From assembly GCA_038065715.1 (NCBI GenBank), contig JBBTQL010000007.1:49643-113642 (forward strand): a stretch of 64,000 bases of DNA, written 5' to 3'. Made by a program: the position numbers and the translations under genes. The notes beneath the pieces were generated by a model. That model saw only the letters and a program-made list of their open reading frames with translations. It searched no databases and was not told where the DNA came from. The stretch is from Patescibacteria group bacterium. GTDB lineage: Bacteria > Patescibacteriota > Minisyncoccia > Minisyncoccales > Staskawiczbacteraceae. This document shows, one piece after another, positions 9,949 to 49,819 of the stretch. The stretch's first letter is position 1; every line of letters begins with the position of its first letter.

Positions 9949-11046
9949 ATGAAGGATTTAGATTTTCCATTATTTAAAACTAAAATTGACGGGCAAGCTA
10001 AAAAATTTGACCTGACTGATTTTAATTCTCGGCAAGAGTATTTTGAATACAAAGCTGGAGACGAAATAAAAAAATTGAGAGAATTTTTAAAAGACAATAC
10101 TTTTATTGCTTATTTAATGGGTAAAAAAAGCTCTGGAAAGGGAACTTATTCTAAAATGTTTGCTGAAGTTATAGATAAGGATAGAATTACCCATTTTTCT
10201 ATTGGAGATATGATAAGGTCTTTTGACGAAGTTATAAAAGACCAAGGGAAAAGAAAAGAGATTGTAGGGTTTTTAGAAAAGAATTACAGAGGCAGAATGC
10301 CTTTAGAAGATATAATGAAGTCCTGGGATAACAGGTCAACAAAAACTTTATTGCCAACAGAATTAATTTTAGCCTTGGCAAAAAGAGAAATATCAAAGCT
10401 TGGCAGAAAAGCAATTTTTATTGACGGGTTTCCCAGGGACATAGACCAGGTCTCATACTCTCTGTTTTTTAGAGACCTTATAGATTACAGAGATGACCCG
10501 GATGTTTTTATTTTAATTGATGTGCCAACCGATGTAATTGATGAAAGGGTAAAGTTTAGGGTAATTTGCCCCTTATGCAACACATCAAGAAACTTAAAGC
10601 TTTTGGCAACAAAAACAGTTGAATACGACAAAGATGCCAAAAAGTTTTATTTAATTTGCGATAATTCAAGTTGTCTCGCTTCGCGAGATCTGGCAAAGCC
10701 AGACAAAGGAGCAAGAATGGTTACAAAAGAGGGTGATGAACAAGGTATTGAGCCAATAAGAGAAAGATTAAATAAAGACGAAATGCTTGTAAAAGAAGCA
10801 TATAATTTAAAGGGAATTCCTAAGGTGCTTTTAAGAAATTCAATTCCGGCTAACCAGACAAAAGATTTTGCTGACGATTATGAAGTTACGCCAGAATATG
10901 TATATACTCTTGAAGCAGATAATGTAAAAACAACAGAAAAGCCGTGGGAGGTTAAAGATGACGAAGGCGTTTTATCAAACAGTTTAATGCCGCCTCCAGT
11001 TGTTGTTTCTTTAATAAAACAACTGGTAAAAACCCTTGACCTATAA
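9949..11046 (+). CDS. Long adenylate-kinase-family (NMP kinase) paralog with Cys4 lid
   Basis: P-loop GKKSSGKGT. IDGFPR (adk LDGFPR-like). Lid CPLC...C..SSC. 365 aa. A canonical adk is also present at 29626. Confidence 0.6.
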   Translation: MKDLDFPLFKTKIDGQAKKFDLTDFNSRQEYFEYKAGDEIKKLREFLKDNTFIAYLMGKKSSGKGTYSKMFAEVIDKDRITHFSIGDMIRSFDEVIKDQGKRKEIVGFLEKNYRGRMPLEDIMKSWDNRSTKTLLPTELILALAKREISKLGRKAIFIDGFPRDIDQVSYSLFFRDLIDYRDDPDVFILIDVPTDVIDERVKFRVICPLCNTSRNLKLLATKTVEYDKDAKKFYLICDNSSCLASRDLAKPDKGARMVTKEGDEQGIEPIRERLNKDEMLVKEAYNLKGIPKVLLRNSIPANQTKDFADDYEVTPEYVYTLEADNVKTTEKPWEVKDDEGVLSNSLMPPPVVVSLIKQLVKTLDL

Positions 11047-11055
11047 ATTTAAAGA

Positions 11056-11124
11056 GTTAACCCTTCACCTTTTGATATTTCAATTTTTAATATCGCGTAT
11101 TGACATACAAAGGTGAAGGGTTAA
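11056..11124. repeat. Inverted repeat GTTAACCCTTCACCTTTT / AAAGGTGAAGGGTTAA enclosing a -35 box
   Basis: 16-nt arms read directly. Related CTTCACCTTTT/AAAAGGTGAAG hairpin at 12760-12784. Confidence 0.7.
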
Positions 11125-11133
11125 TATGAAAGT

Positions 11134-11297
11134 AGCTCTGATGTTTTCAAAATAGATTCTATACAAACTTTTTTATGGGAGCTCAAATTTGTTAAGACCG
11201 TGGTCTTAATATGCGGGCACCCACTTAGATTTTACTAGAAATCTATGAAAAGGTCAGAGCATTAAAAAGACACTCAAAAAAATTGAGTGTTTTTTTA
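11134..11297 (+). ncRNA. Candidate structured sRNA (closing stem, central bubble, apical hairpin; 6S-like shape) with its own promoter and terminator
   Basis: TTGACA(11100-11105)-16 nt-TAATAT(11122-11127). 5' GCTCTGA..TTTTC..ATAGATTCT pairs with 3' AGAAATCTAT..GAAAA..TCAGAGC. Inner helix TGGGAGC/GCACCCA. Apical TTAAGACC-GT-GGTCTTAA. Terminator ACACTCAA-AAAAA-TTGAGTGTTTTTTT. Confidence 0.45.
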
Positions 11298-11374
11298 ATT
11301 TTTGCCTTTACACTGTATTTATAAAACTATATAATTAATTCAGTAAATATCATTAATTTAATAAAATTATAATA

Positions 11375-11812: not shown

Positions 11813-12019
11813 TTAAATTTTCGCTGTTCTTTTTATGCATTTAGCGCAGGCTAAAACTCGTTTACCAGATGACAAACCTGCCTGCGCAGGCAGGCGCGTC
11901 CATTGTAAATTTGGGTGCTTTCTTACCTTTTGAGTAGGATTATATTTACCTCTTAATTTAACAAGAGTCCATCCCATGCTTGATTTTTTTCCGCAGATCG
12001 TGCAAATTTTTTCAGCCAT
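11813..12019 (-). CDS. rpmB: Ribosomal protein bL28
   Basis: MAEKICTICGKK...NPTQKVRKHPNLQ...RVLACAKCIKR. Carries an in-frame 18-nt perfect GC palindrome (11877-11894). Confidence 0.85.
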   Translation of the reverse strand: MAEKICTICGKKSSMGWTLVKLRGKYNPTQKVRKHPNLQWTRLPAQAGLSSGKRVLACAKCIKRTAKI

Positions 12020-12814: not shown

Positions 12815-12848
12815 ATATTTAATTAAGCGCTATGCGCTTTTATATTTT

Positions 12849-13260: not shown

Positions 13261-13725
13261 ATGCGAAGAGCTTACAAAAAACACAAAGTAGCTCCAGATT
13301 CGGTTTATAACGACGTGGCAATTGCCCAGTTTATAAACAAGGTAATGAAAGACGGCAAAAAAACAACCGCGCAAAAAATTGTGTACGGAGCTTTTGATAT
13401 TATAAAAGAAAAAACAAAAAAAGAGCCTGCTGAAGTTTTCAGGCAGGCAATTGAAAATGCTTCGCCTATTTTAGAAGTAAAGCCAAAAAGAATTGGAGGA
13501 GCAACTTATCAAGTTCCAATGGAAGTAAGAGGGGAGAGAAGGCTGGCTTTGTCAACAAAATGGATATTAGACGGCGCAAGGGGAAAAAAGGGAAAAGCAA
13601 TGGCAGAAAAGTTGGCGCAAGAATTAATTGACGCATCAAACAACGAAGGCATTGCAATTAAAAAGAAAAACGACACCCACCGCATGGCCGACGCCAACAA
13701 AGCTTTTGCTCATTTCGCTAGGTAA
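13261..13725 (+). CDS. rpsG: Ribosomal protein uS7
   Basis: MRRAYKK...[11 protein letters not shown]...[13 protein letters not shown]...[10 protein letters not shown]. Confidence 0.95.
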
Positions 13726-13778
13726 AAAAAACACGCGAATTCCCGGTATCCGCGCGTATCTGATCATTTTGCCAGGTA

Positions 13779-13794
13779 ACGTGAGTACTCACGT
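13779..13794. repeat. Perfect 16-bp palindrome ACGTGAGTACTCACGT flanked by GGTAACGT direct repeats
   Basis: Palindrome at 13779-13794. GGTAACGT at 13775-13782 and 13799-13806. Confidence 0.5.
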
Positions 13795-13809
13795 GAGGGG
13801 TAACGTAAC

Positions 13810-13953
13810 AAAAAATCCGTCCTGAGCAAAGTCGAAGGACAGATTCTTTGACGCGGAGGCCGGTGGAGTCGAACCACATTCTAAATAAATAGAACCAATT
13901 GTTTATCAGGCAAAGACCAGAACCGTCTGGTTTCAACCTCCCATAACCTCCGC
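13810..13953 (-). ncRNA. tRNA-like sRNA (acceptor-like helix + T-arm + D-arm-like hairpin, no anticodon arm) with terminator
   Basis: Extended -10 TGcTATAAT (13965-13960) puts +1 at G13953. 9-bp helix GCGGAGGTT(13953-13945)/GGCCTCCGC(13861-13853). T-arm GTGG-TTCGACT-CCAC (13877-13863). TGG-GAGGTTGAAA-CCA hairpin. Terminator GTCCT...AGGAC plus T-run (13840-13810). Confidence 0.55.
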
Positions 13954-13969
13954 AACTAAATTATAGCAC

Positions 13970-14047
13970 AAAAAAAACAGCACTTCCAAAATTGAAAATG
14001 CTGTTTCCGGTTCCATTCTTATAGAATGTGACACTGCCTGATAAACT
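13970..14047 (-). ncRNA. Short sRNA whose 5' end is complementary to the tRNA-like sRNA
   Basis: Lies downstream of the promoter at 14054-14081. The 5' GTTTATCAGGCA (14046-14035) is the exact complement of TGCCTGATAAAC (13912-13901). Ends in hairpin ACAGCA...TGCTGT plus T8. Confidence 0.45.
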
Positions 14048-14053
14048 AACTTA

Positions 14054-14081
14054 ATTATAGCAGAACCAAGCACCCTGTCAA
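14054..14081 (-). promoter_or_regulatory. Near-consensus sigma70 promoter (minus strand)
   Basis: TTGACA(14081-14076)-16 nt-TGcTATAAT(14059-14054). Confidence 0.55.
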
Positions 14082-14169
14082 GAGTAAAAAAAGACCCCGA
14101 GAGATGACTCGAGGTTTGCCCCAGCAATCGCCAGGTCTGGCGCCAAAACGCCTTTTCGCGTTTTGGGGG

Positions 14170-14400
14170 TCAGAGTTTTTTGCCACAACATGGGCAAAAC
14201 TCTGCATCTAATTCATACTTTATGAGCTCGTGCTTACAACCAAACGCTAAATCTGCGAGCTCTTGTTCTTGAAGCTCATTAATGGTTGGTGGAAGCGGTA
14301 AGACCTTCCCGCAATAACAACAATAACGAAAATGTATAGCAACCAGACAACCACAATCCGGACAGTTATATAAACCACGGTCATCGGGTATTATACCCAT
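14170..14400 (-). CDS. Small double zinc-ribbon protein
   Basis: CPDCGC...CCYCG and C...CPCCG pairs. AAGGAG SD 8 nt upstream. G+C-richer than the flanks. Three consecutive hairpins in the 3' region (14100-14168). Confidence 0.6.
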   Translation of the reverse strand: MGIIPDDRGLYNCPDCGCLVAIHFRYCCYCGKVLPLPPTINELQEQELADLAFGCKHELIKYELDAEFCPCCGKKL

Positions 14401-14549
14401 AGTTTTTTCTCCTTGTAAGGTGCAGAATAAATAATATTACAAGATAAATAAGTTATTGTCAAGTTATCATGATAACCGAAAAAATTTAGAAATTTAGTCA
14501 TTTAAAAATTATTTAAAAATTTAAAATTAAAAATTGAAAATTATAGTTT

Positions 14550-16625
14550 ATGGCGCGTAAATATCCACTTAATAAATTAAGAAACATAGGAATAATTGCT
14601 CATATTGATGCTGGCAAAACCACTTTTTCAGAGAGGTTGCTTTTTTATACCGGAGTTTCGCATAAAATTGGCGAAGTGCACGAGGGAGACACTGTTATGG
14701 ATTGGATGGTGCAGGAAAGAGAAAGGGGAATTACAATCACTTCAGCTGCCACAACAATGTATTGGAGAGACCACCAGATAAACTTGATTGACACTCCGGG
14801 CCACATCGATTTTACAGCAGAAGTGCAGAGGTCTTTGAGGGTTTTAGATGGAGCAGTTGTTGTTTTTGACGGAGTTGCCGGAGTTGAGCCGCAAAGCGAA
14901 ACAGTTTGGAGGCAAGCAGATAAATACGCGGTCCCAAGAGTTTGCTTTGTCAACAAATTAGACAGAATGGGGGCTTCTTTTGAAAAAAGTTTTCAGTCAA
15001 TTTTAAATAAATTAACCAAAAATGCGGTTGCGGTAAGCTTTCCAATGGGACTTGAAGAAAAATTAGAAGGAGTTGTTGATTTAATAAAAATGAAAGCGTT
15101 ATATTTTGAGGGAGAAAAAGGCATTGAAGTTGTTGAAAAAGATATTCCCGCAGAATGGAAGGCCGAGGCTGAAACATGGCACAAAAAAATGATTGAAAAG
15201 GTTGCTGGAGAGGACGACGCTTTAACGGGAAAGTTTTTAGAAGGAAGGGAAATAACAGCCGAAGAAATTAAAGCAGTTTTAAGAAAATCAGTTTTAAATT
15301 ATAAATTAGTGCCGGTTTTTTGCGGTTCTGCCTTAAAAAATAAAGGAGTGCAAACTATTTTAGACGCTATTGTTGAATTATTGCCTTCTCCTTTAGATGT
15401 GGTTTCCCAAAAAGGAACCGATCCAAAAACGGGGGCTGTAATTGAAAGAAAGGCAGATGACAACGAGCCATTTGCGGCTTTAGTTTTTAAGATTGCCACA
15501 GACCCTTATGTGGGAACTTTAACATATTTTAGGGTTTATTCTGGAGTTTTGAATAAGGGTTCGTATGTTTTAAATGCCAACACAGGAGAGCAAGAAAGAA
15601 TTGCCAGAATTTTAAGAATGCACGCAGACGAAAGACAGGAATTAGATGTTATATATGCTGGCGAAATTGGAGCCACAGTTGGATTAAAAGGAACAAGCAC
15701 AGGGCACACGTTATGCGCCAAAGAATCGCCGGTTATTTTAGAAAAAATTGTTTTTCCTGAGCCTGTTATTGGAATTAGAGTTGAGCCGAAAACAAAAGCT
15801 GACCAGGAAAAACTTATTATGTCTATCAGAAAATTAACCGAAGAAGATCCGACTTTTAGAATTAAAGAAGATATTGAAACAGGAGAAACAATTATTTCGG
15901 GCATGGGAGAATTGCATTTAGATATTATTGCAGACCGTTTAAAAAGAGAGTTTAAAGTTGAGGCAAATTACGGCAGGCCTCAAGTGGCTTATAAAGAAAC
16001 AATAACAGCTGAAGCTGAAGCTGAAGAAAAATATGTAAGGCAGTCTGGAGGAAAAGGCCAATATGGACACGTGCTATTAAGAGTAAAACCAAAAGAAAGG
16101 GGAGCGGGCTTTGAATTTATTGACGAAATAAAAGGAGGCGCAATTCCAAAAGAATTTATTAAGCCAGTTGAAAAAGGAGTTGTGGAGGCAATGGATAAAG
16201 GAATTGTTGCAGGATATCCAATGGTTGATGTTGAGGTTATATTATTTGACGGAAGCTACCATGATGTTGACTCTTCTGAATTTGCTTTTAAAATTGCAGG
16301 CTCAATGGCTTTTCAAAAAGCCGCAAAATCAGCAAAACCAGTTATTTTAGAGCCAGTAATGAAAATAGAAGTTGTCACTCCGGAGGATTTTTTTGGGCAG
16401 GTTATTTCTGATTTAAATTCAAGAAGAGGGCAAATTAAAGAAACATCAGAAAGAGCTGGAATGAAAGTTATAGACGCGATAGTTCCATTATCAGAAACAT
16501 TTGGATATGCAACGTCTTTGAGGTCATTAACAGAAGGCCGCGCCTCATTTACTATGGAATTTAATAGTTACGAACAAGTCCCAAGTAATATTGCTCAAGA
16601 AATTGTTGACGGAAAAAGGCAGTAA
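14550..16625 (+). CDS. fusA: Elongation factor G
   Basis: [18 protein letters not shown] GTPase motifs. 691 aa. Position after rpsG. Confidence 0.97.
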
Positions 16626-16701: not shown

Positions 16702-17007
16702 CTAATGAACTTGGTCTAATATATCTTTTTCATTATCGCTGACAGTGGGCGGTTTATGAGTTCCCACTTCATACCTATGATGTGGCAACGGTGAAACAGC
16801 CTGTTCTTTTGCGCATTCGGGTTGCTCATCGGCAAGCGGTCCTGCCTGTGCAGGCAAGTCGGGAATTTCCCGCTTAAAGATTAGGACAATTTCGGTCCTA
16901 AATCCACTTAATTTCCAACCGCTTTTTTTCTCTTTATCGACTATCTGTTGGCGTATTTCCGCTGATATGTCGCTGGGCAGACGTAATTCTTTGGTTTCTG
17001 TTTTCAT
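16702..17007 (-). CDS. Hypothetical protein (G+C-rich, SD-led, antisense to the operon)
   Basis: 101-aa ORF. AAAGGAAAAA upstream of ATG. Contains a TGCCTG-TG-CAGGCA hairpin (16843-16856) encoding PAQAG. Confidence 0.5.
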   Translation of the reverse strand: MKTETKELRLPSDISAEIRQQIVDKEKKSGWKLSGFRTEIVLIFKREIPDLPAQAGPLADEQPECAKEQAVSPLPHHRYEVGTHKPPTVSDNEKDILDQVH

Positions 17008-18765: not shown

Positions 18766-19152
18766 ATGCCTGCAAAGAAAATTGTTCGGAAAAGAACAAT
18801 AAAAGCAAATAAAGAAGAGAACGCAGAAGAAAAGGGAGCCCCAGAAATGAGGCAGAAGCTTCGCATAAAGCTTAAAGCTTATGACCACAAAATTATTGAC
18901 AATTCAGCCCGCCAGATAATTGATATTGCAAACCGCTACGGAGTTGACGCAGTAGGTCCTGTTCCATTACCCACAGAAATTTTAAAATACACTGTTAACA
19001 GATCAAGTTTCGTGCACAAAAATGCCAGAGAACAGTTTGAAATGAGAGTTCATAAAAGAGTGATTGATATTTTAAATCCAAACCAAGATATTATAGAAGC
19101 GTTGAGAGATTTGAATTTACCTTCAGGTGTTGACATTGCGATTAAAATTTAG
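18766..19152 (+). CDS. rpsJ: Ribosomal protein uS10 (with Lys-rich N-terminal extension; alternative start 18847)
   Basis: Core [21 protein letters not shown]...VHKRVIDI. Confidence 0.9.
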
Positions 19153-19222
19153 TAAACTATCATATATAGACAATAGTTAACTTCCCGCCACAATGCTTAT
19201 AGCTTTGGGCGAGGTAACAACA

Positions 19223-19255
19223 TTGCCAAAAATCTGGCAAGCACGCCAGTTTTTT
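19223..19255 (+). promoter_or_regulatory. Attenuator-like pair of mutually exclusive hairpins between rpsJ and rplC
   Basis: Hairpin A is TTGCCA(19223-28)/TGGCAA(19235-40). Hairpin B is CTGGC(19234-38)/GCCAG(19245-49) plus T6. The two share 19234-19240. Confidence 0.4.
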
Positions 19256-19346
19256 GTTAATGCCAATTTACGAATTATATGCTAATAATGCAAATTCGTA
19301 TTTGGGTCATTGGCGACGTCATTAGCTATATTTGCATTGTATTTAT

Positions 19347-19946
19347 ATGAAATTTATATTAGGCCAAAAAATTGGAATGTCCCAGCTATTTGATAAAGAC
19401 GGCAAGTTAACGCCAGTTACCTTGGTTTTGGCAGGGCCTTGTTATGTTTTGCAAAAAAAGACAAAAGAAAAAGACGGTTATAATGCTTTGCAGATTGGAT
19501 TTGAAAAAATAGAAAAGAAAAACAAAATCAAAAAATCAATGGCTGGAAAGGAATATAAATATATACGGGAATTCAGAATCCAGAATTCAGAATTTGAAAA
19601 AGATGGAGAAAAAGAAATTAATGTCGCTACTTTCAGCGAAGGAGAAAAAGTAAAAGTTTCAGGAATGTCAAAAGGCAAAGGATTTCAGGGCGGAGTTAAA
19701 AGGCACGGATTTTCAGGAAGAAACGCCACTCACGGCGTAAAGCATGAACACAGAACAATAGGTTCAACTGGTTCGCGTTTTCCTCAGCATGTTATTAAGG
19801 GCAGAAAAATGCCAGGTCGAATGGGATATGAAAGAATTACAGTTAAAAATTTGAAAATAGCGAAAATTGACGCAGAAAATAACTTGTTAATATTAAAGGG
19901 AGCAGTGCCCGGGCACAAGGGCACATTGCTTGAAATCAGAGGATAA
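19347..19946 (+). CDS. rplC: Ribosomal protein uL3
   Basis: MKFILGQKIGMSQLFDKDG...KGKGFQGGVKRHGF. Confidence 0.95.
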   Translation: MKFILGQKIGMSQLFDKDGKLTPVTLVLAGPCYVLQKKTKEKDGYNALQIGFEKIEKKNKIKKSMAGKEYKYIREFRIQNSEFEKDGEKEINVATFSEGEKVKVSGMSKGKGFQGGVKRHGFSGRNATHGVKHEHRTIGSTGSRFPQHVIKGRKMPGRMGYERITVKNLKIAKIDAENNLLILKGAVPGHKGTLLEIRG

Positions 19947-19953: not shown

Positions 19954-20598
19954 ATGAAGGTAGATGTTTACAATCAATTAGGAGAGATATCCGGAAGTAT
20001 GATTTTGCCGAAAGAAATTTTTGAGGTAAAACTTAATACTGATTTAGTGCACCAAATTGTTGTTTCGCAAATGGCAAACAAACGCCAGGTTTCAGCCCAT
20101 ACAAAAGACAGAAGCGAGGTGAGGGGAGGAGGAAAAAAACCGTGGAGGCAAAAAGGAACAGGCAGGGCAAGGCACGGTTCAATAAGGTCTCCATTGTGGA
20201 GAGGCGGCGGAGTTACATTTGGACCAAGAAATGAAAAAGTGTTTGAAAAAGATGTTCCTAAAAAAATGAGGAGAAAAGCTTTGCTTATGGTTCTTTCCGA
20301 AAAAGCTAAGAATAATTTCTTGATTGTATTAGAAAGCCCCGCCTTCGCTGAAGCTACGGCGGGCAAAGCAAAAACAAAGGAGGTGGCAAAAATATTGAAA
20401 AAATTGCCAAGCAAAGATAAAACCCTATTGATTGCTTTGCCAGAATACGACAAAAATGTATTTCTGGCAGCCAGAAATATAAAAAAAACCAGCATTTCAG
20501 AAGCAAGAAATTTGAATGTTTTAGATTTAATGTCGTCTAAATATTTGTTAATGCCAAAAGAAAGCATAAAAACTATAGAAAAAACATTTCTAAAATAA
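19954..20598 (+). CDS. rplD: Ribosomal protein uL4
   Basis: ...GGGKKPWRQKGTGRARHGSIRSPLWRGGG. In-frame GC hairpin at 20337-20366. Confidence 0.95.
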   Translation: MKVDVYNQLGEISGSMILPKEIFEVKLNTDLVHQIVVSQMANKRQVSAHTKDRSEVRGGGKKPWRQKGTGRARHGSIRSPLWRGGGVTFGPRNEKVFEKDVPKKMRRKALLMVLSEKAKNNFLIVLESPAFAEATAGKAKTKEVAKILKKLPSKDKTLLIALPEYDKNVFLAARNIKKTSISEARNLNVLDLMSSKYLLMPKESIKTIEKTFLK

Positions 20599-20604: not shown

Positions 20605-21039
20605 ATGGCTTTATTTGATTTTTTAAAAAAGAAAAAAGCAATAGAAAAAGCAAGGGAAACGGATAAAAAGTCCGAGAAAGTTTCGGCTGAAGGAAAACCC
20701 GCTGAAAAGGCAAAGCCTATTAAGGCGGACTCGCAACAATCTCGCCGAAAGGCGAGTTTGGGCGGGTTTTCTTACAACGCCATAAAAAATCCGCATATAT
20801 CAGAAAAAGCAACTGCTTTGGCAGAAAAAAACCAATATACTTTTAAAACATTGGCAGGCGCTAATAAAACAGAAATAAAAAAAACAGTGGAAGGAATTTA
20901 CGGGGTAGATGTTTTATCTGTAAATATAATAAAAATTCCAGCTAAAAAAAGAAGAATAGGAAAAACTAAAGGATTTAAATCGGGGCACATAAAAGCAATT
21001 GTAAAAATAAAAGAAGGCCAAGTAATTGAAATTTTTTAA
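20605..21039 (+). CDS. rplW: Ribosomal protein uL23 (N-terminally extended)
   Basis: C-terminal core ...ISEKATALAEKNQYTFKT...KTEIKKTVEGIYGVDVLSVNI. GC hairpin at 20741-20756 in the extension. Confidence 0.9.
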   Translation: MALFDFLKKKKAIEKARETDKKSEKVSAEGKPAEKAKPIKADSQQSRRKASLGGFSYNAIKNPHISEKATALAEKNQYTFKTLAGANKTEIKKTVEGIYGVDVLSVNIIKIPAKKRRIGKTKGFKSGHIKAIVKIKEGQVIEIF

Positions 21040-23935: not shown

Positions 23936-23996
23936 GTAATCCTTCGCCCTTCGTCGTAGCGACTTCTCAGGGCTCAGGATGAATTTATTAAAATTC

Positions 23997-27170: not shown

Positions 27171-27770
27171 ATGGAAGAAAAAATAGAACAAAATAATAAT
27201 AGTCCTCAGTTAACACCAAAAGCTCAAGATAGATCTGGGTTTAAACCTTTTGGCCAAGGCGAAAACAGGGGCCCGGGCAGGAGTTTTGGCGGAGGCCGCG
27301 GCCGCGGTTTTGGAGGCAGAGATAAAATAAAAGATGAATTTGATTCAAAGCTTTTGGATTTGGCTAGAGTTACAAGAGTTACGGGCGGAGGAAAAAGAAT
27401 GAGTTTTAGGGCAGTTGTGGTTGCTGGAGATAAAAAAGGCAAAGTTGGCATTGGAATAGATAAAGGAAAAGATGTTTCTCAAGCGATAGAAAAAGCAACA
27501 AGAAGAGCCAAGAAAAATTTAGTCAGTGTCGTAATTGTGGATGGAACGATTCCTTACGAAGTTATGGCAAAGTCAGGGCCAGCTATAATTTTATTAAAAC
27601 CTCAAAGAAAAGGCAGGGGATTGGTGGCTGGCGGGGCTGTAAGGGTTATTTGCGACTTGGCTGGCATTAAAAATATTTCTTCAAAAATACTTTCTGGTTC
27701 AAAAAACAAATTAAACAACGCAAGGGCAACAATGGAAGCGTTAAAAAAGTTGAAAGTAAAAAGTTCATAA
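27171..27770 (+). CDS. rpsE: Ribosomal protein uS5 (RGG-rich N-terminal extension)
   Basis: ...VTRVTGGGKRMSFRAVVVAGD...GRGLVAGGAVR. The extension is encoded by GC-rich palindromic DNA at about 27262-27312. Confidence 0.93.
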   Translation: MEEKIEQNNNSPQLTPKAQDRSGFKPFGQGENRGPGRSFGGGRGRGFGGRDKIKDEFDSKLLDLARVTRVTGGGKRMSFRAVVVAGDKKGKVGIGIDKGKDVSQAIEKATRRAKKNLVSVVIVDGTIPYEVMAKSGPAIILLKPQRKGRGLVAGGAVRVICDLAGIKNISSKILSGSKNKLNNARATMEALKKLKVKSS

Positions 27771-37468: not shown

Positions 37469-37526
37469 AACAGAAGGAAACCCTTCGCTAAAGCTCAGGG
37501 TGATTTCCTCGTTTCACTCGAAAATC

Positions 37527-39860: not shown

Positions 39861-40457
39861 ATGGCAAAAGATACAACTAAAAAACCAGCAAAACCGGCCT
39901 TGCCTGACGGCAGGCAGGCAAAAAAAACTGCAAAGCCAGTTGAGGAGATAAAAAAAATAATTTCAGTTCCAGCGCCAGCTATAACACCGATTCAAAACAT
40001 AGAAGACGATGGAGATGAATTTTCTCCAGAAGATTTTAAAATAGACAAAGAATTAGCGTCAAAGCCTGACCGTTATTTTGAGGCAATCGGGCGAAGGAAA
40101 ACCGCTGTTGCCCGCGTAAGGCTTTTTACAAGAGGCGAGAAGGAATTTTTAGTTAATGGCAAACCTTATCAAGAATATTTTACCATTGCAGAAGACCAGC
40201 AGACAGCTACTGCTTCAATGAAAAAAATGAAATGTCTTGATAAGTTTAGGATTACTTCAATAGTAAAAGGGGGAGGCAGGCACGCTCAAGCAGAAGCAGT
40301 AAGGCACGGAACTGCCAGAGTTTTAGTTGATTTTAATAATAATTTCAGAAAACGTTTAAGAAAAGCAGGTTATTTAACAAGAGACCCAAGAATGAGAGAA
40401 AGAAAGAAATTCGGATTAAAACGCGCAAGAAAAGCTCCTCAGTGGGCAAAGAGATAG
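39861..40457 (+). CDS. rpsI: Ribosomal protein uS9 (N-terminally extended)
   Basis: Core ...GRRKTAVARVRLF...GGGRHAQAEAVRHG.AR...R..ERKK.G...ARK..Q..KR. GC hairpin at 39898-39922 in the extension. Confidence 0.93.
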   Translation: MAKDTTKKPAKPALPDGRQAKKTAKPVEEIKKIISVPAPAITPIQNIEDDGDEFSPEDFKIDKELASKPDRYFEAIGRRKTAVARVRLFTRGEKEFLVNGKPYQEYFTIAEDQQTATASMKKMKCLDKFRITSIVKGGGRHAQAEAVRHGTARVLVDFNNNFRKRLRKAGYLTRDPRMRERKKFGLKRARKAPQWAKR

Positions 40458-40567: not shown

Positions 40568-41428
40568 ATGTTGGACGCAACAATAATAAAACAAAATAAA
40601 AAAGTTGATGATGCTGTATCTCGCGAGCTGTATTACGATAAGCCCGGATTTAAATTATACAATGCGAATTGTTTAGATGTTCTTGCAGAACTTCCGGAAA
40701 ACTCCGTTGATATGATTTTTGCGGATCCTCCTTATTTTTTATCAAATGGGGGATTTAGTTTGCATGCTGGCAAGAGAGTAAGCGTAGATAAGGGTCAATG
40801 GGATGTAAGTAATGGACTAAAAAAAGATTTTGATTTTCATCTTGAATGGATAAAAGCTTGCCATAGAGTTTTAAAGCCCCACGGAACGATTTGGATTAGT
40901 GGAACCTATCATTCAATTTATCAATGTGGATTTGCTTTGCTGGTCAATAAGTTCCACATATTAAACGATATTACGTGGTTCAAGCCCAATGCATCGCCAA
41001 ATTTAAGTTGTCGATTTTTTACGGCAAGTCATGAAACTTTGCTTTGGGCTAGGAAGGACAAAAATGCAAAACACATTTTTAATTACGATTTGATGAAAAA
41101 TGGAAGTTGGCCGGAAGACCAACTGAAAAAACCAAACCTTCAAATGCGTTCAGTTTGGGCTATTGGCACTCCAAAAACTGTTGAAAAAAAGTTTGGCAAA
41201 CATCCGACACAAAAGCCGGAAGATTTATTAAAAAGGATTGTACTTGCAAGCACAAATAAAGGAGATTTAGTTCTAGATCCTTTTACCGGAAGCTCAACCA
41301 CTGGGGTTGCCTCTTATCTTTTTGGCAGACATTTTATTGGGATTGATACGGAACCAAAATTTCTAGACTTATCAATAAAAAGGTTTGAGGAGTTAGATCG
41401 TAATTTAAAGAGTAAATTTACTTTTTAA
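40568..41428 (+). CDS. Beta-class N6-adenine/N4-cytosine DNA methyltransferase
   Basis: Motif IV IFADPPYF precedes motif I LDPFTGSSTTG. HPTQKPEDLL. Confidence 0.9.
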   Translation: MLDATIIKQNKKVDDAVSRELYYDKPGFKLYNANCLDVLAELPENSVDMIFADPPYFLSNGGFSLHAGKRVSVDKGQWDVSNGLKKDFDFHLEWIKACHRVLKPHGTIWISGTYHSIYQCGFALLVNKFHILNDITWFKPNASPNLSCRFFTASHETLLWARKDKNAKHIFNYDLMKNGSWPEDQLKKPNLQMRSVWAIGTPKTVEKKFGKHPTQKPEDLLKRIVLASTNKGDLVLDPFTGSSTTGVASYLFGRHFIGIDTEPKFLDLSIKRFEELDRNLKSKFTF

Positions 41429-41432
41429 AACC

Positions 41433-41993
41433 ATGGATGAACAACAGCTAAAAACATACATGACATTTCAGAGAGATGGCCAATCAAAGATGCCTCTCGC
41501 CGTTTTTGAAGTAAATGGAAGCTATGTTGTCGGCGTTTATCAAGGTACTTTGAGTGATTTTGATATTCTGATAAAATATAGACAAAAAATAGATGGAACA
41601 TGGTCAAGAATTCGGACTCCAAAACATATTCACTGGGCTGCTGACATTTTAATTAAATTACACGAGGATAAAATTAAAACACAACAGTTCCTCGATTTTT
41701 TATTAGGTATATGGGCCACGACTGTGCCAGTTAGAAATCCGAAACAACAAAGTGATATTTTAAATATAAAATCATTGCTAAAAGATAGCCAAAATATGAT
41801 TTTAGAGTATGAGAGCTTGAGCAATAAAGGAGAATATAGTATTAAATTTTTAATATTACTTGCTAAATTATTAATGATTCAAGAAAAGACGAATATGGAA
41901 GCGGCCTTTATGTTTAAAAATTTATTGGATGCGCTCCGCAACAAAGGAGATATTTTTTCTGTTGTATCCATAGCGTCCCATACCGGACGATAA
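41433..41993 (+). CDS. Hypothetical protein embedded between the MTase and nuclease genes
   Basis: 186-aa ORF starting 4 nt after the MTase stop. No catalytic motif recognised. Confidence 0.5.
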   Translation: MDEQQLKTYMTFQRDGQSKMPLAVFEVNGSYVVGVYQGTLSDFDILIKYRQKIDGTWSRIRTPKHIHWAADILIKLHEDKIKTQQFLDFLLGIWATTVPVRNPKQQSDILNIKSLLKDSQNMILEYESLSNKGEYSIKFLILLAKLLMIQEKTNMEAAFMFKNLLDALRNKGDIFSVVSIASHTGR

Positions 41994-42003
41994 TCAAAAA
42001 TTT

Positions 42004-42624
42004 ATGAAAATTATAACTCGCGCGGTTGCCATAAGAAATTTAAGAAAATATGTGGGCCAGGATTTAAGAAAGTTGGCTTTAGAGCATGGAATTACAACTT
42101 ATGAAACCGGAAAGCAAAACAAGGGCTGGAAAGGGCTTGTTTTAGAAAGGCTGGCAGGATTAGAAACAAATATTTCAAAGGCTCCAAACGGGCTAACTTA
42201 TGAATTAAAATCGGTTGCTTTTCACCATGTTAAAAATAATCTTGTGCCGAAAGAAACCATGGCGATAACAATGATAAATCCAGAAGAATTAAAAGCCCAT
42301 TCTTTTTTTGAAAGTCATTGCTGGGCAAAACTTAAAACCATTGTGTTTTGTGCGGTTGGATGGAATGGCATAAATTCTACAGAAGCAAAATTACTTAAAG
42401 TTGCGAGCTTAGATTTTGCCGAAGACGACGAATTAATAAAAGAAATAAAAGCAGATTATGATTTTATCCGCGAAAAACTAATTACAAAAGGTTTTAAATC
42501 CTTAACTGGTGCAGACGGAAAATGGATACAAGCGAGAACAAAAGGTGCCGGACACGGATCGACAAGCCGGGCTTTTTATGCTAGAACAGGTTTAGTGAAA
42601 AAAATTTTTGAGATAGCATCATAA
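42004..42624 (+). CDS. MutH/Sau3AI-family endonuclease-like protein
   Basis: ...NKGWKGLVLERLAG......YELKSV... resembles MutH KGWIG.LLE..LG......D....ELK (from memory). The Asp position appears to be Asn (APNGLTYELK). Confidence 0.65.
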   Translation: MKIITRAVAIRNLRKYVGQDLRKLALEHGITTYETGKQNKGWKGLVLERLAGLETNISKAPNGLTYELKSVAFHHVKNNLVPKETMAITMINPEELKAHSFFESHCWAKLKTIVFCAVGWNGINSTEAKLLKVASLDFAEDDELIKEIKADYDFIREKLITKGFKSLTGADGKWIQARTKGAGHGSTSRAFYARTGLVKKIFEIAS

Positions 42625-45601: not shown

Positions 45602-46735
45602 TTATTGAGTGATTTTTTCTGAAGAAAGGAGAGTGTTACCTGTCAATATATACAATTTTCCGTCAGATTGTTTAAAAAATATTTTAGGATTTTTGATTTC
45701 TAAGGAATTGCCGCTTGTTAAAGTTGCGGTTTGCGGCAGGGTAAACGTATTTATATTGCCCCTTTCGTCAATTTCTGAAATTACTATTTTATTTCCAAGG
45801 TTAAAAATTAAATAATTGTCGTTTAGCCAAAAGCTGTCGCCAATTTTTTCTGAAAATCTGTTTAAAAATATTTGGTCGGTTGGAGAATTGAGGTAAGAAA
45901 ATAGAATTTCATAATCGTTATAAAAAAGCAGTTTTTGCCCGTCCGGAGAAATTTTTAAATTATTTACCGGGCTATAAAAATTTTTAAAATCGTTTGTCGT
46001 TTTTGAAAAAAACAAAAGGCTATTATCATTTTTGAGAAAGATATTTTGCTGGACTGTTATTATTTTGTAAGTATTTTTTATATTTATACTTAGGGCAGTT
46101 TGGCTTAATTTTTGCGTATTGCCCCCGCTTTGGTCAGAGCTGTATAAAAAACCGTTGGCAGAAAGCCAAACTATATTGTTGTTTAATACTGTGCTTGCTA
46201 AAACATTTTTTAAAACGGGAATAGTTTTATCGGCTTTCGTTATATTATTATTTTCTGGCGCGTTAGAATAATACAAGTTGCCATTTTTAATAATATATTT
46301 TTCTTGTTCTTTTGGTTCAATAAAAGGGGATTGGGTTTTGTCTGTTAAAATTTCAAAAAGAATTTGTTCTTTAAATAAAACAACGTGTTCTAATTTTGCC
46401 ACTTCTTTCTCTTTTACATCCAAGGTTTTTTGGTATGAAAAATAGCCGTTTTTTTTTACCAAGACATTATGCGACTTTGGCAGAAGGTTTTGCATAAACA
46501 CAAACCCAGAAAGCATGTTTGTTTTTCCGGCAAGCTTTGAATTTATATAAATCTCGGCTGGCTCTGGCCAGACTTTAACATAAATGCCGCCTGTTGCCAC
46601 TAATTTTTTGTTTTCAAAATCAACCCTGTATCCAAGGGAATAGGCAACTATGTAGGGCGTTATGATAAAAAACAAAACAGCGCAGGTGATTAGTATTACA
46701 AAACGAGTTCTTTTCTGCATATATGTTTTAAGCAT
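45602..46735 (-). CDS. Membrane-anchored PEGA-domain protein with beta-rich C-terminal region
   Basis: N-terminal TM. VKVWPEPAEIYINSKLAGKT...HNVLVKKNGYFSYQKTLDV (PEGA-like). Confidence 0.55.
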   Translation of the reverse strand: MLKTYMQKRTRFVILITCAVLFFIITPYIVAYSLGYRVDFENKKLVATGGIYVKVWPEPAEIYINSKLAGKTNMLSGFVFMQNLLPKSHNVLVKKNGYFSYQKTLDVKEKEVAKLEHVVLFKEQILFEILTDKTQSPFIEPKEQEKYIIKNGNLYYSNAPENNNITKADKTIPVLKNVLASTVLNNNIVWLSANGFLYSSDQSGGNTQKLSQTALSINIKNTYKIITVQQNIFLKNDNSLLFFSKTTNDFKNFYSPVNNLKISPDGQKLLFYNDYEILFSYLNSPTDQIFLNRFSEKIGDSFWLNDNYLIFNLGNKIVISEIDERGNINTFTLPQTATLTSGNSLEIKNPKIFFKQSDGKLYILTGNTLLSSEKITQ

Positions 46736-47221: not shown

Positions 47222-47271
47222 CAAGCGCATAAAAGCCCAATTCGGGCTTTTTGTTTAAAGTTCGATAAGTA

Positions 47272-47300
47272 TTGACAAAATTATATTATGGTGATATAAT
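47272..47300 (+). promoter_or_regulatory. Consensus promoter giving a probably leaderless mRNA
   Basis: TTGACA(47272-77)-17 nt-TATAAT(47295-300). ATG at 47308. Confidence 0.5.
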
Positions 47301-47307
47301 TAATTAT

Positions 47308-48063
47308 ATGAAAGGAGGTGAACAAATTTCTATAAATAACAGCTCAAAAGTGGGAGTTTTAATGCTCCACGGTTTTTCAAGCACTCCAAGGCAGTTTAAA
47401 GAATTGAGCGCCTTTTTATCTGAAAAAGGTTTTAATATATTGGCTCCGGTTATATCGGGACACGGAACTTCGCCAGAAGATATGATGAAAACTTCGCCAG
47501 AAGACTGGAAAAAATCAACAATGGATGCTTATTTAAAATTGAAAAATAGCTCTGAAAGCATCTTTGTTATTGGAAATTCTTTTGGCTCTAATCTGGCTTT
47601 ATGGCTGGCAAAAGAATTAAATGGCAATTTAGCTGGGGTTATTACTTTAGGCGCTCCTATTTTTTTAAGATTTCATAATTTTATTAAATTCAGGCTTTTT
47701 ACATACGGCAGATTTAAAAAATATTACAAAAAACCTTTGCGCGTTTATAAAGCCGATTACACAGACATGTTAGACGAAGTTTCGTATCCTGTTATTCCTG
47801 TTAAAAACTTAAACGAGTTTATTAATTTTTTAGAGCAGGAAACAACGCCGAATTTGCATAAAATAAAAACACCAATTTTAATAGCTTACGCCACGGTTGA
47901 TCCTGTTATACATCCAAAAAGCGCAAAATATATTTTTCAAAATATAGGCTCTGAAAAAAAAGAAATTTTTTGGTTTGACAGCAACAGGCACAGCATTTTG
48001 GGAAAAGGATGCGAAAATTTATTTTGTAAAATTTTTGAATTTATAAAAGAACAAAATGTATAA
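47308..48063 (+). CDS. Alpha/beta-hydrolase carboxylesterase
   Basis: LMLHGFSSTP, nucleophile elbow GNSFGS, C-terminal D/H region. Confidence 0.8.
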   Translation: MKGGEQISINNSSKVGVLMLHGFSSTPRQFKELSAFLSEKGFNILAPVISGHGTSPEDMMKTSPEDWKKSTMDAYLKLKNSSESIFVIGNSFGSNLALWLAKELNGNLAGVITLGAPIFLRFHNFIKFRLFTYGRFKKYYKKPLRVYKADYTDMLDEVSYPVIPVKNLNEFINFLEQETTPNLHKIKTPILIAYATVDPVIHPKSAKYIFQNIGSEKKEIFWFDSNRHSILGKGCENLFCKIFEFIKEQNV

Positions 48064-49819
48064 GGCAATTCCAGAAGTTTTTTTTGAAGTTGCGAAAAAA
48101 CATCCCAATAAACGCGCCCTTTTATACAAAAAGGAAGGAGTTTATTTTCCTATTACTTACAAAGAATTATCTAAAAAAATATCAATATTTAGCAAGGGGC
48201 TTTCAGATATTGGGGTTGGCAAGGGAGACAAGGTGGCAATTTTATCAGAGAACAGGCCAGAGTGGGTTATTTCAGATTTATCAATTATGGCCATTGGAGC
48301 TGTTGCTGTGCCTCTGCACACAACATTTAATCCAAAAGCTGTTTGCAGTGTTTTAAGGCATTGCCAAGCAAAAGTTCTTATTGTTTCAAATAGCGATCTT
48401 TTAAATAAAGCGTTATTGGGTCAAAAATATTTAAAAGACCTTAAAAAAATTATTTTCATAGAAAATTTAACTTCGGCCCAAAAAGAGATATTAAGCAACA
48501 AGGTTTTAAGCTGGAAAGCAATGATGGCTCAAAATCAAAAACTTTCCGCCCAAGGCGGACCAGCCTCGGGCTGGGAAAAAATATTTTTAGACCCAGACGA
48601 TTGCTGCTCAATTATTTACACTTCGGGCACCACAGGCAAGCCAAAAGGCGTGGTTTTAACCCATAGAAATTTTTTAAGCAATGTAGAGGCGGTTGCCGAA
48701 GTTGTTCCTGTAAATAGCAGCGATATTTTTTTGTCTTTTTTGCCTTTGTCGCATGTTTTAGAAAGAATGGCAGGTTACTATATGCCTTTGTGCCACGGGG
48801 CAACTATTGCATACGCAGAAGGCATAAAACAGCTTTCAGCCAATTTAAAAGAGGTGAAGCCTACAGTAATGATTTCTGTTCCGCGCGTCTTTGAAAAGTT
48901 CCACGATGCTATTTGGGACAAAGTTAATAGCTCGTCTAAGCTTCAAAAAAGAATTTTTAAATGGGCGCTAAAACAGAAAAAGGGGACGGTGGCATATAAA
49001 GTTGCAGATTTTTTAGCTTTCAAAAAAATACGCAATAAAATGGGAGGCAGGTTGCGCTTAACAATTTCCGGGGGAGCATCTTTAAATGAAAATATTGGCA
49101 GATTTTTTTCAAAAATTGGAATTTTAATATTAGAAGGTTATGGGTTAACAGAAACTTCGCCGGTTATTTCTGCAAATCAGGAATATGATTTTAAATTTGG
49201 AACTGTTGGTAAAATTATTCCCGGAGTAAAAGTTAAAATTACTGATACAAAAGAAATTTTAACAAAAGGCCCAAATGTTTTTCAGCAATATTTCAAAAAT
49301 AAAGAAGAAACAAAACTAAGTTTTGACAGAGAGGGCTGGTTTCATACGGGAGACTTGGGATTTATTGACAAGCAGGGTTTTTTAACAGTTATTGGCAGGG
49401 CAAAAGAAATGATTGTCACTTCTGGCGGCAAAAATGTGTGGCCAGAGCGCGTTGAAAATTTATTAAATAACGACCGTTTTATTTCTCAGGCAATAATAAT
49501 TGGAAACAATAGAAAATTTATTTCAGCTTTAATTGTTCCTGATTGGCAGGAAATTGAAATATATCTAAAAGAAAATAATCTGCCTTTGCAGGAGCACGAC
49601 AAGCTTATAAAAAGCCCTGTTCTTTTAGATGTTTTTCAAAAAAGAATAGACGAAAAAATAAATCCGAATATTCACGAATTTGAAAGAGTCAAAAAATTTA
49701 AATTGCTTCCGCAGGAATTTTCTCAAGACCAAGACGAGCTAACAGCCACTTTAAAACTGAGAAGGCGCATAATTGAAAATCACCATAAAAAGCAAATAGA
49801 CTCAATGTACGAAGACTAA
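48056..49819 (+). CDS. Long-chain fatty-acid--CoA ligase (AMP-forming)
   Basis: AMP-binding motif YTSGTTGKPKGV, GYGLTETS, TGDLG. In-frame double GC hairpin at 48545-48574. Confidence 0.9.
   Translation: MYKAIPEVFFEVAKKHPNKRALLYKKEGVYFPITYKELSKKISIFSKGLSDIGVGKGDKVAILSENRPEWVISDLSIMAIGAVAVPLHTTFNPKAVCSVLRHCQAKVLIVSNSDLLNKALLGQKYLKDLKKIIFIENLTSAQKEILSNKVLSWKAMMAQNQKLSAQGGPASGWEKIFLDPDDCCSIIYTSGTTGKPKGVVLTHRNFLSNVEAVAEVVPVNSSDIFLSFLPLSHVLERMAGYYMPLCHGATIAYAEGIKQLSANLKEVKPTVMISVPRVFEKFHDAIWDKVNSSSKLQKRIFKWALKQKKGTVAYKVADFLAFKKIRNKMGGRLRLTISGGASLNENIGRFFSKIGILILEGYGLTETSPVISANQEYDFKFGTVGKIIPGVKVKITDTKEILTKGPNVFQQYFKNKEETKLSFDREGWFHTGDLGFIDKQGFLTVIGRAKEMIVTSGGKNVWPERVENLLNNDRFISQAIIIGNNRKFISALIVPDWQEIEIYLKENNLPLQEHDKLIKSPVLLDVFQKRIDEKINPNIHEFERVKKFKLLPQEFSQDQDELTATLKLRRRIIENHHKKQIDSMYED

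Follow-up and report, generated by a model that had tools for sequence, protein, structure and literature searches.

Candidate Phyla Radiation (CPR) bacteria possess tiny, streamlined genomes, which are usually thought to be poor in repetitive and selfish DNA. Why, then, do conserved genes of one such bacterium carry GC-rich stem-loops that leave the reading frame intact? The question is raised by a 64,000-nucleotide (nt) stretch of DNA from a Patescibacteria group bacterium (assembly GCA_038065715.1, contig JBBTQL010000007.1, positions 49,643 to 113,642), referred to below as the window, in which such hairpins were found in ribosomal-protein genes, enzyme genes and intergenic DNA. We consider it probable (about 0.65) that they belong to several families of very short (15-54 nt) GC-rich hairpin repeats that behave as selfish DNA in Parcubacteria, in a manner similar to the repetitive extragenic palindromes (REPs) of other bacteria and the GC clusters of yeast mitochondria. 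Selfish palindromic repeats are already a known kind of sequence; what is notable here is the tiny size of the elements, their CPR hosts and their ongoing activity in essential genes.

Hairpin excess and in-frame insertion in the window

The host is an uncultured, AT-rich groundwater bacterium. The window is densely coding, with nearly all genes on the plus strand, a GC content of 35% and strongly positive GC and AT skews, and Pfam analysis identified the str, S10, spc and alpha ribosomal-protein operons, adk, map, tpiA, alaS and others. The nearest rplD relatives are metagenome-assembled genomes (MAGs) of the Parcubacteria/'Staskawiczbacteria' type, and a fragment from Hainich groundwater (L037) is 100% identical to window sequence. 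Loci used for comparison are designated by L and three digits, as distinct from ribosomal proteins such as L28. Window genes were aligned by codon with orthologues from 116 related loci, and the closest genome at hand was GCA_964555955.1 (L247 and L251), which is syntenic with the window at about 85-90% amino-acid (aa) identity.

Perfect GC-rich hairpins were counted if the stem had 6 bp or more, with a GC share of at least 4/6, and the loop 3-8 nt. The window has 32 of these; dinucleotide shuffles gave 5.4±2.2 (maximum 11), so that the excess survives the shuffled control that had been proposed in the first-pass annotation, an earlier reading of the window from its letters and open reading frames (ORFs). 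Within coding sequences (CDS) there are 20 sites, compared with 4.3±1.9 when synonymous codons were resampled and 4.3±2.0 when codons were permuted (100 replicates; null maxima 10-11). Composition, amino-acid sequence and codon usage therefore cannot explain the hairpins, whose codons CGG, GCC, CAG and CTG are rare codons of the host genome. Density is about 4.2 times higher outside CDS (10.0 per 10 kb) than inside (2.35). The same excess was seen in 36 related loci fetched with rplD (250 hairpins vs 86 expected), and the phenomenon is thus lineage-wide. No family was matched when the entire window was searched against Rfam at gathering thresholds, and the hairpins are accordingly explained by no known RNA. 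The elements considered in the window are as follows.

10671-10707, plus strand: compound element in an adk paralog; 30-nt insertion at 10675-10704 encoding LASRDLAKPD
11877-11894, minus strand: perfect 18-nt palindrome CCTGCCTGCGCAGGCAGG in rpmB (L28), encoding LPAQAG
13819-13840, minus strand: intergenic member of the CC-TTCG-N-CTCAGG family, GTCCTGAGCAAAGTCGAAGGAC (as written on the plus strand), from the pattern scan
16843-16856, minus strand: palindrome TGCCTG-TG-CAGGCA in ORF 16702-17007, encoding LPAQAGP
20337-20366, plus strand: rplD element encoding PAFAEATAGK, its CCCGCC/GGCGGG stem closed by a 14-nt loop, TTCGCTGAAGCTAC
20741-20756, plus strand: perfect hairpin CTCGCC-GAAA-GGCGAG in the Lys-rich N-terminal extension of rplW, encoding SRRKAS
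23941-23979, plus strand: intergenic nested element upstream of rpsQ, outer TCCTTCG..CTCAGGA with CCCTTCG..CTCAGGG in its loop
31318-31356, plus strand: nested hairpin in tpiA, encoding AEGRRQAAEGG
32305-32354, plus strand: compound element in a ykuK-like (RNaseH_like) gene; 48-nt insertion at 32307-32354
33893-33926, plus strand: alaS element, net gain 30 nt or 10 aa
34723-34742, plus strand: CCTGCCTG-GCGG-CAGGCAGG (PAWRQAG), located in the N-terminal tail of ORF 34672, a membrane protein
34788-34814, plus strand: second hairpin in the tail of ORF 34672, TCTGC-C-TGCCG-CGCCT-CGGCA-TGCAGA, fold energy -15.1 kcal/mol
37478-37500, plus strand: intergenic CCCTTCGCTAAAGCTCAGGG upstream of rpsD, of the TTCG..CTCAGG family, from the pattern scan
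39898-39922, plus strand: CCTTGCCTG-ACGG-CAGGCAGG (LPDGRQA), located in the N-terminal extension of rpsI
48545-48574, plus strand: 30-nt double hairpin TCCGCC-CAA-GGCGGA + CCAGCC-TCG-GGCTGG in an acyl-CoA ligase gene (ACS), encoding SAQGGPASGW

Among the host genes, rpmB (11813-12019) and ORF 16702-17007 lie on the minus strand. Every hairpin listed in the first-pass annotation was found where it had been placed, in the gene that had been named (Pfam); the ykuK-like hairpin is present, but its transcribed sequence was slightly off, the true one being GTCCCGATTGCAAAGCAATCGCGGATCCTCGATGGCAAAGCCATCGGGAC. The GC content of the inserts is 58-81%, compared with 35% for the window. Folded as single-stranded DNA (ssDNA), the ykuK (z -5.9), alaS (-6.6), adk-paralog (-3.3), ACS (-3.5) and 23941 (-2.4) elements are significant, and the rplD (z -0.3), tpiA (-1.2) and 37478 (-1.0) elements are weak against composition-matched shuffles; the latter three are anomalous mainly through their GC content and family resemblance.

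The annotation had taken the hairpins for lineage-specific in-frame insertions, and the orthologue alignments agree for seven genes, namely rpmB, rplD, tpiA, ykuK, alaS, the adk paralog and ACS. In rpmB the window reads ACG CG[C CTG CCT GCG CAG GCA GG]T TTG TCA TCT GGT, where relatives have R-L-(A/P/L/S)-S-G-K; the insert is exactly the 18-nt palindrome, lies between CG and T of an Arg codon without target duplication, and is missing in L003, L007, L010, L021, L022 and the closest relative L251. The adk-paralog insert, located after the Zn-finger cysteines, consists of two 15-nt hairpins (TCTCGC-TTC-GCGAGA and TCTGGC-AAA-GCCAGA) within an outer stem TTGTC/GACAA; it is missing in L253 and in about 60% of 120 orthologues, and recurs in L252 with 33/36 nt identical. 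The ykuK-like insert, in which an outer 8-bp stem (GTCCCGAT/ATCGGGAC) encloses two AAA-loop hairpins, is missing in 15/15 orthologues shown (up to 80% identity). All 15 alaS orthologues shown read GAA TTT GAA AAA TTA, and the window has 32 nt in place of GA, which can be drawn as two 15-nt modules (TCTCGC-TTT-GCGAGA and GCTCGC-ATA-GCGAG(A)) or as a single long hairpin TATCTCGC..GCGAGATA. The ACS double hairpin is missing in 117/120 orthologues, including an 88%-identical sister, and all 117 retain the ancestral N-x-E-[F/Y]. The rplD element adds 15 nt (5 aa) relative to close orthologues; its architecture is shared by the adk paralog of L250, CCCGCC-TCCGCCAAGGCTTC-GGCGGG (PASAKASAGK), with related forms in L018 and L036. 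In tpiA an outer CTCGCC/GGCGGC stem, a GAA/GAA internal loop and an inner GGACGCC-GGCA-GGCGGCC hairpin account for 18 nt (6 aa) more than in most of 45 orthologues. Comparison with the triosephosphate isomerase (TIM) of E. coli had suggested a same-length replacement at this site, which was dropped: CPR orthologues have a shorter helix there, and the element is thus an insertion in this lineage.

Since the N-terminal tails of rplW, rpsI and ORF 34672 could not be aligned, the claim for their hairpins is limited to their being apparently lineage-specific. Relatives bear other hairpin modules in the rplW extension (L001, TTCGCCAAAGGCGAA; L022; L029, CCTGCCTGCCGGACAGGCAGG). The rpsI element is also present in the closest relative, L247, with a different centre (TACC register), and is missing in more distant orthologues. 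The tail that bears both hairpins of ORF 34672 is lineage-specific among 22 orthologues, and the palindrome of ORF 16702-17007 is missing in L003, the sole orthologue found. As the annotation had supposed, it is permissive loops and termini that hold the elements; in the AlphaFold model of the adk paralog the predicted confidence (pLDDT) falls below 50 at the insert (residues 246-251), which would fit a surface loop. The idea of plain insertion had to be amended for several events, in which resident bases were swapped out: in ACS 12 nt gave way to 36, in alaS 2 nt to 32, and in the TpiA of L056 and L058 the replacement is of the same length.

Three further hairpins were rejected as insertions. 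The one at 4045-4062 is part of the P-type ATPase motif DAPALAQ, and that at 19905-19924 belongs to KGAVPGHKG of rplC and has a perfect stem in the window alone. The third, AGGGCC-GCTGA-GGCCCT in map (30502-30518), is conserved and covarying: it is kept in about 40 orthologues, with stems AGG..GCC, AGA..GCT, AAGGTC..GACCTT and GAGCTT..AAGCTC that covary partly via synonymous changes. In this stem 81% of cells are paired, 17 two-sided changes were counted against 7.2±2.2 in shuffles (0/500 reach 17), and close orthologues include G-T intermediates (three AGG..GCT, no AGA..GCC). It may be a functional mRNA structure, and its conservation and covariation show that selection for coding-region hairpins exists in these genomes; it does not account for presence/absence polymorphism in unrelated genes.

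Sequence families, turnover and hot spots

A single element family, spreading through this genome, had been envisaged. Stem clustering over 1.3 Mb (the window and related loci), together with pattern scans, instead gave at least three sequence families, which are present across Parcubacteria, the CCTGCCTG palindrome occurring also in GC-rich viral contigs. They occur in differing genes, in differing frames, in intergenic DNA, in one another's loops and repeatedly at the same permissive loops.

Family 1 comprises CCTGCCTG-N2-5-CAGGCAGG palindromes, with four copies in the window (LPAQAG twice, PAWRQAG and LPDGRQA) and others in L026, L029, L032, L067, L247, L251 and L254-L256; its peptides come from all three frames (LPAQAG; PACAGR/PAWRQAG; TCLRRQ). 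The eight measurable coding copies are all 18 or 21 nt long (four of each), whereas the seven intergenic copies are all 19-20 nt, and in L256 an intergenic CCTGCCTACCGGCAGGCAGG corresponds to the coding CCTGCCTACCGGTCAGGCAGG. This multiple-of-three length filter indicates that the ribosome reads through the elements; the coding copies are probably translated, not removed.

Family 2 consists of modules of 15 nt, each a 6-bp stem closed by a loop of 3 nt (mostly AAA, TTC, GAA or TCG), often paired as 30-nt double hairpins. The ACS-type pair, TCCGCC-N3-GGCGGA + CCAGCC-TCG-GGCTGG, recurs nearly unchanged at other loci: as a loop insertion in the TpiA of L055 and, elsewhere in TpiA, as the same-length replacement of AIKKGVKD in L056 and L058; in the RpoA tail of L047; in the L22 (rplV) tail of L018, where the frame differs (PQPTADQPRAG vs SAQGGPASGW); and in intergenic DNA of L018 and L026.

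Family 3 has variable stems and a conserved loop, (C)CC-TTCG-N6-14-CTCAGG(G). Its window copies are those at 13819-13840, 23941-23979 (a nested pair) and 37478-37500, and the rplD element is related; L003 and L040 have only the simple outer element at the position matching 23941-23979. Coding copies encode PSTGSGQ-like peptides. The pattern has 56 matches in 1.33 Mb of CPR loci, not all of them true members (3 in the window vs 0-3 in shuffles).

Close relatives were found to differ in which genes carry the elements, which therefore appear to have been mobile recently. Between the window and GCA_964555955.1, six of the seven internal indels of at least 3 aa in 18 gene pairs (the giant surface protein excluded) are GC-rich hairpins. 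Two are found only in the window (LPAQAG of rpmB and the ACS double hairpin); at one adk site the two genomes carry different elements, that of L251 at the site of the window's adk-paralog insert being 18 nt long; and three are confined to the relative, in adk (the 21-nt CCTGCCTCGCGGCGAGGCGGG, GA^T), in rpoA (54 nt, GC-rich) and in a PEGA-domain gene. The last is the identical 18-mer CCTGCCTGCGCAGGCAGG (GA^C), and the window orthologue (45602-46735) is empty there. The same 18-mer thus sits in rpmB in the window only and in the PEGA-protein gene in the relative only, and such a distribution, one palindrome in two closely related genomes but in different genes, marks a sequence that is copied to new places. 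The spread that the first-pass annotation had suggested is borne out by these differences from a genome about 85% identical. No target-site duplication was seen at the three precisely defined events (rpmB, the PEGA-protein gene and adk of L251). Most recent core-gene indels here stem from hairpin repeats, with L4, L23, L28, S9, alanyl-tRNA synthetase (AlaRS) and TIM among the hosts.

Several sites are hot spots. Family-1 inserts are found in the L28 loop of about 20 of 120 orthologues, at two or more insertion points and with the centres GCGC, GCCGGT or ACCGGTC. At the Zn finger of the adk paralog about 40% of 120 orthologues carry one of at least five different inserts, and a second site in this gene takes family-3 elements. 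The ykuK-like site, with its 48-nt compound element in the window, holds a CCTTCG..CTCAGG (family 3) element in L049 and L055. TpiA has two hot-spot loops. An outer tpiA hairpin CTCGCC..GGCGGC, which resembles the rplW module, is common to the window, L038 and L049 (the last from another TpiA clade) and encloses three unrelated inner hairpins, those of L038 and L049 being GCCCC/GGGGC and GTCCCGCC/GGCGGGAC, respectively; we interpret the pattern as probable insertion into the loop of a resident hairpin. Compound or nested elements were found in tpiA, at 23941, in ykuK, in adk and in L249. Three non-sister lineages share the ACS double hairpin together with its local architecture. The window and L248 agree in 30/30 of its nucleotides, although this genome pair has 75% nucleotide identity and only 58% of same-amino-acid codons match across ACS; the agreement would reflect either lateral allele exchange or strong constraint.

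Three arrangements of GC-rich sequence were noted beside these families. At L032:1080-1830 there is an array of ~200-nt repeats made of GGGATTC..[GC hairpin]..TCAGAATGAC units and their reverse complements, a larger tandem repeat whose cores are CCTGCCTG and CCCGCC-TTC-GGCGGG hairpins. At L022:11088-11560, a small AbrB/SpoVT-like ORF between rplW and rplB has several 15-17-nt GC hairpins on both flanks, including GCGAAGC-type triloops. The N-terminal extension of rpsE (27263-27313) contains a GC-rich RGG/GRG low-complexity segment, GENRGPGRSFGGGRGRGFGG, with a fold energy of -22.7 kcal/mol, perhaps the decayed remnant of an old cluster of such elements.

Selfish repeats as the probable reading, and the competing explanations

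From the insertions, sequence families, recent turnover, hot spots and multiple-of-three filter described above, the following life cycle is proposed. New copies would be pasted into AT-rich DNA without target-site duplication, be it between genes, inside genes or within the loop of another copy, where nested or compound elements would result. Most genic copies would be purged by purifying selection, and the survivors would be those with a length that is a multiple of three, no stop codon and a position in a permissive loop or terminal extension; they would be translated into short Ala/Gly/Pro/Arg/Gln-rich peptides whose sequence is set solely by the landing frame. For the copying itself we prefer a templated process in which an existing copy is the donor and hairpin formation assists, either ectopic gene conversion or a switch of template where a fork stalls or the DNA breaks; this is favoured by the replacement of resident bases in several events, unusual for cut-and-paste and typical of templated repair. 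Alternatively, a hairpin-specific single-strand transposase, similar to HUH enzymes or REP-associated tyrosine transposases (RAYTs), might act in trans, as proposed for REPs (PMC3733652). Pfam analysis of 20 window ORFs revealed a DNA methylase/MutH-like pair, a C5 methylase, LexA and a Cas4-like nuclease. RNA-level roles are not needed to explain the data.

Several points weigh against selfish spread. Neither the scanned window ORFs nor the Pfam gene lists of L247-L256 yielded a transposase or another candidate for mobilisation (no search of whole genomes was made), and each family is present in only a few copies per 64 kb. The precisely defined junctions (CG^T, GA^C, GA^T; several copies are then followed by CAAAA) obey no consistent target rule. 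The ACS and TpiA elements share sites in non-sister lineages and could have arrived there by lateral allele exchange through homologous recombination, not as new insertions. Selection for structure, of the kind seen in map, could also maintain some inserted copies, and the high conservation of the ACS double hairpin could express function rather than youth.

A rival view is that the hairpins are functional RNA or ssDNA structures selected in place, for processing, stability, pausing or protein binding in operon transcripts, with the families reflecting recognition by a conserved factor. The covarying map stem, the tpiA site that stays paired in its inner stem with three unrelated sequences, the unchanged ACS double hairpin in diverged genomes and the TTCG..CTCAGG family, in which the loop is conserved while the stems vary, are all in its favour. 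We nevertheless regard it as unlikely, for presence and absence vary between 85%-identical genomes, the hosts are unrelated and position is not conserved; nearly all ACS and all displayed ykuK and alaS orthologues do without the element, one site is occupied by different elements, and Rfam recognised nothing. Rather less probable still is that each hairpin arose locally and independently, through template switching or quasi-palindrome correction in GC-rich low-complexity linkers, with no movement between loci. Template switching is known to create hairpins (PMC10710096), and the perfect stems, the nesting and the change of centres between kept arms (GCGC, GCCGGT and ACCGGTC in L28; the inner stems of tpiA) are what it would leave behind; yet identical 18-, 20- and 30-nt sequences stand at unrelated loci and in unrelated genomes, and the inserts, GC-rich in a 35% GC background, are unlike their flanks, those of rpmB, ykuK, alaS and the PEGA-protein gene not being derivable from adjacent sequence.

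A further explanation is protein-level selection for flexible linkers of Ala, Gly, Pro and Arg, with the hairpins as a side effect of the mutual complementarity of GC-rich codons (GCC/GGC, CGC/GCG). The peptides are indeed rich in A, G, P, R and Q and sited in loops and tails, but the same nucleotide element is read in three frames to give unrelated peptides and also stands in intergenic DNA and in a tRNA gene, synonymous resampling yields 4.3 hairpins instead of 20, and the codons used are rare in this genome; frame independence largely refutes this explanation, to which we attach very little weight. Artefacts of assembly or sequencing in MAGs deserve hardly any: although chimeric reads can yield palindromes, assemblies and projects independent of one another show these insertions at identical sites (L037; L248 from JGI; L249 and L252 from Logan; NCBI MAGs), and the reading frame is preserved in every case.

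The repeats would then remain best viewed as selfish DNA, and a bolder version of that view can be entertained tentatively, as doubtful but possible. Perfect palindromes of 15-21 nt, e.g. CCTGCCTG-N2-4-CAGGCAGG, might be autonomous-looking mobile units, among the smallest known, pasted without target duplication into single-stranded loops of any kind (coding, of other copies, or tRNA D and variable loops) and spreading in a hairpin-dependent manner, with copies both in CPR bacteria and in unrelated GC-rich phage contigs. The exact 20-mer CCTGCCTGCCGGCAGGCAGG matches 35 viral-contig loci of IMG/VR (L117-L151), where a rough estimate of chance expectation is below 1; many of these loci have 60-68% GC, several are multi-copy, and the copies often lie beside short tandem repeats. 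One copy, at the locus L141:2239-2330, is within the variable loop of a tRNA-Met gene still called by ARAGORN, and another (L148:515-534) is in sequence that by eye is D-loop-like, in which ARAGORN calls no tRNA. An exact search of IMG/VR for the ACS double hairpin gave no matches; the 15-mer CCAGCCTCGGGCTGG was not used, its 95 matches there being about the chance level for a 15-mer; and Pfam analysis of 10 ORFs of the multi-copy viral contig L137 returned a phage adaptor protein only. Were this minimal mobile-palindrome version true, streamlined genomes would have their ribosomal proteins and enzymes continually remodelled at the surface, and some copies might become co-opted as conserved mRNA hairpins like that of map.

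More generally, if selfish hairpin repeats are at work, a hidden mutational process would shape the extensions and loop insertions typical of CPR proteins and would account for odd recurring peptides (LPAGRQAG, GGPASGW, PSTGSGQA, AEATAGK) in their hypothetical and housekeeping proteins. Such a process would bear on alignment-based phylogeny and gene calling, would provide a natural experiment on insertion-tolerant protein sites, and poses the question of how an 18-nt palindrome is copied to new sites without target duplication.

Relation to known palindromic repeats and other features of the locus

Intragenic REPs and Rickettsia palindromic elements (RPEs) are the closest bacterial precedents. 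Intragenic REPs, GTAG- or CGTC-tagged stem-loops of which some are RAYT-mobilised, form several families per genome in Proteobacteria and in Planctomycetes-Verrucomicrobia-Chlamydiae (PVC) bacteria (Di Nocera et al. 2013, PMC3733652). REPs are mostly extragenic, with some in frame inside known genes as single units, dimers or clusters; different REPs at times lie near the same site of orthologous genes, which was read as loop-tolerated selfish DNA (PMC3733652). The elements described here are likewise short palindromic families, multiple per genome, with in-frame genic copies and shared sites in orthologues. Their stems (6-8 bp) and loops (2-14 nt) fit the REP ranges (5-13 bp and 2-20 nt), but the units measure 15-21 nt, many only 15-18 nt, compared with 20-40 bp for REPs, and copy number is low. 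No consistent GTAG or CGTC terminal tag flanks the window copies, and the sole case of GTAG lying directly 5' of the CCTGCCTG palindrome is in the GC-rich viral contig L137. They differ further in that no RAYT was found in the window ORFs scanned or the L247-L256 Pfam gene lists, in that they reside in CPR bacteria, whose genomes are of ~1 Mb, and have ribosomal proteins among their targets, and in that the double hairpins are two different tandem hairpins, not head-to-head dimers.

RPE-1 is about 100-150 bp long and Rickettsia-specific, and its insertions are mostly ancient. The elements had been described beforehand as analogous to RPEs but much shorter, and rightly so: codon alignments of seven genes show the in-frame insertion into intact genes that characterises RPEs, whereas the inserts measure 15, 18, 21, 30, 48 or 54 nt (3-10 times shorter), belong to other sequence families and are still variable between close relatives. 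The size difference alone makes homology implausible. RPEs are in-frame palindromic repeats in genes that stay functional, with the encoded peptide on the protein surface; the REP study refers to them (PMC3733652).

Closest in behaviour are the GC clusters of yeast mitochondria, GC-rich palindromes of a very AT-rich genome that form polymorphic in-frame inserts in the ribosomal-protein gene var1 (PMC8811140). They are regarded as mobile, change rapidly in their loops, and merge or shuffle into compound clusters (PMC8811140). GC-rich inserts in an AT-rich genome and in-frame polymorphism are both found here. These clusters and the GC-rich palindromes of Neurospora mitochondria are organellar and unrelated in sequence to the window elements, and the terminal repeats of yeast GC clusters are read as target-site duplications, which are lacking at our three precisely defined events. 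In Magnusiomyces the inserts are bypassed in translation, whereas the multiple-of-three rule indicates read-through here. Double-hairpin elements of chytrid (Allomyces) mitochondria, small and composed of two neighbouring hairpins, were reportedly described by Paquin, Laforest and Lang in 2000 from intergenic, rRNA variable and coding regions, with evidence of mobility; they may be likened to the 30-nt double hairpin, although they are organellar and sequence-unrelated. Transposable elements of the miniature inverted-repeat class (70-300 bp, with terminal inverted repeats and target-site duplication) are a poor match, since our elements are too short and lack the duplication, and so are DNA uptake sequences, in which one motif recurs about once per kb, whereas many rare sequences here share the hairpin rather than a motif. 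Without the GTAG/CGTC tag, the RPE size or the GC-cluster terminal repeats, the elements are similar to these systems in working and are not members of them. No description of such elements in CPR bacteria was found in a literature search that included literal sequences.

Other features of the locus were also recorded. The 800-nt gap between rpsG and fusA (13725-14550) contains a repeat-family hairpin, a small zinc-ribbon ORF (14170-14400, minus strand) and a tRNA-like sequence (13854-13942, minus strand), which scores 41 bits with Rfam tRNA-Sec, below the gathering score of 47; ARAGORN finds no tRNA in the 64 kb. Directly upstream of rpsL, a hairpin AAGCGC-N3-5-GCGCTT is present in the window (12825-12839) and, with differing loops, at L003:2091, L010:1009 and L015:1656, and may be a leader element of the S12 operon. 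Relatives have a hairpin between rpsJ and rplC (L003:9368, L004:7807, L005:1936, L007:5767, L012:5050, L014:9376, L017:9273, L018:6126, L019:8702, L027:3575 and L028:4358) whose stems vary yet pair (ACTGGGC/GCCCAGT, AACCGGGC/GCCCGGTT, TACCGGG/CCCGGTA, AGTCGGG/CCCGACT), and no perfect equivalent was found in the window spacer 19152-19332. The 28-nt string TGATGACCGATAGCGCAGGCGCAATTGC (MTDSAGAI) is found near the end of a 2712-aa surface protein (57079-57094) and again at the start of ORF 59124-60050 (59131-59146), an arrangement suggestive of a polymorphic (RHS/YD-type) toxin locus with a displaced C-terminal cassette. In the window rpsI is followed by genes for an N6/N4 DNA methylase and a MutH/Sau3AI-like nuclease, along with an uncharacterised ORF (40568-42624); the closest relative has a Fic-domain gene in this place (L247:4461-5633), and the segment appears to be a variable island in otherwise conserved synteny.

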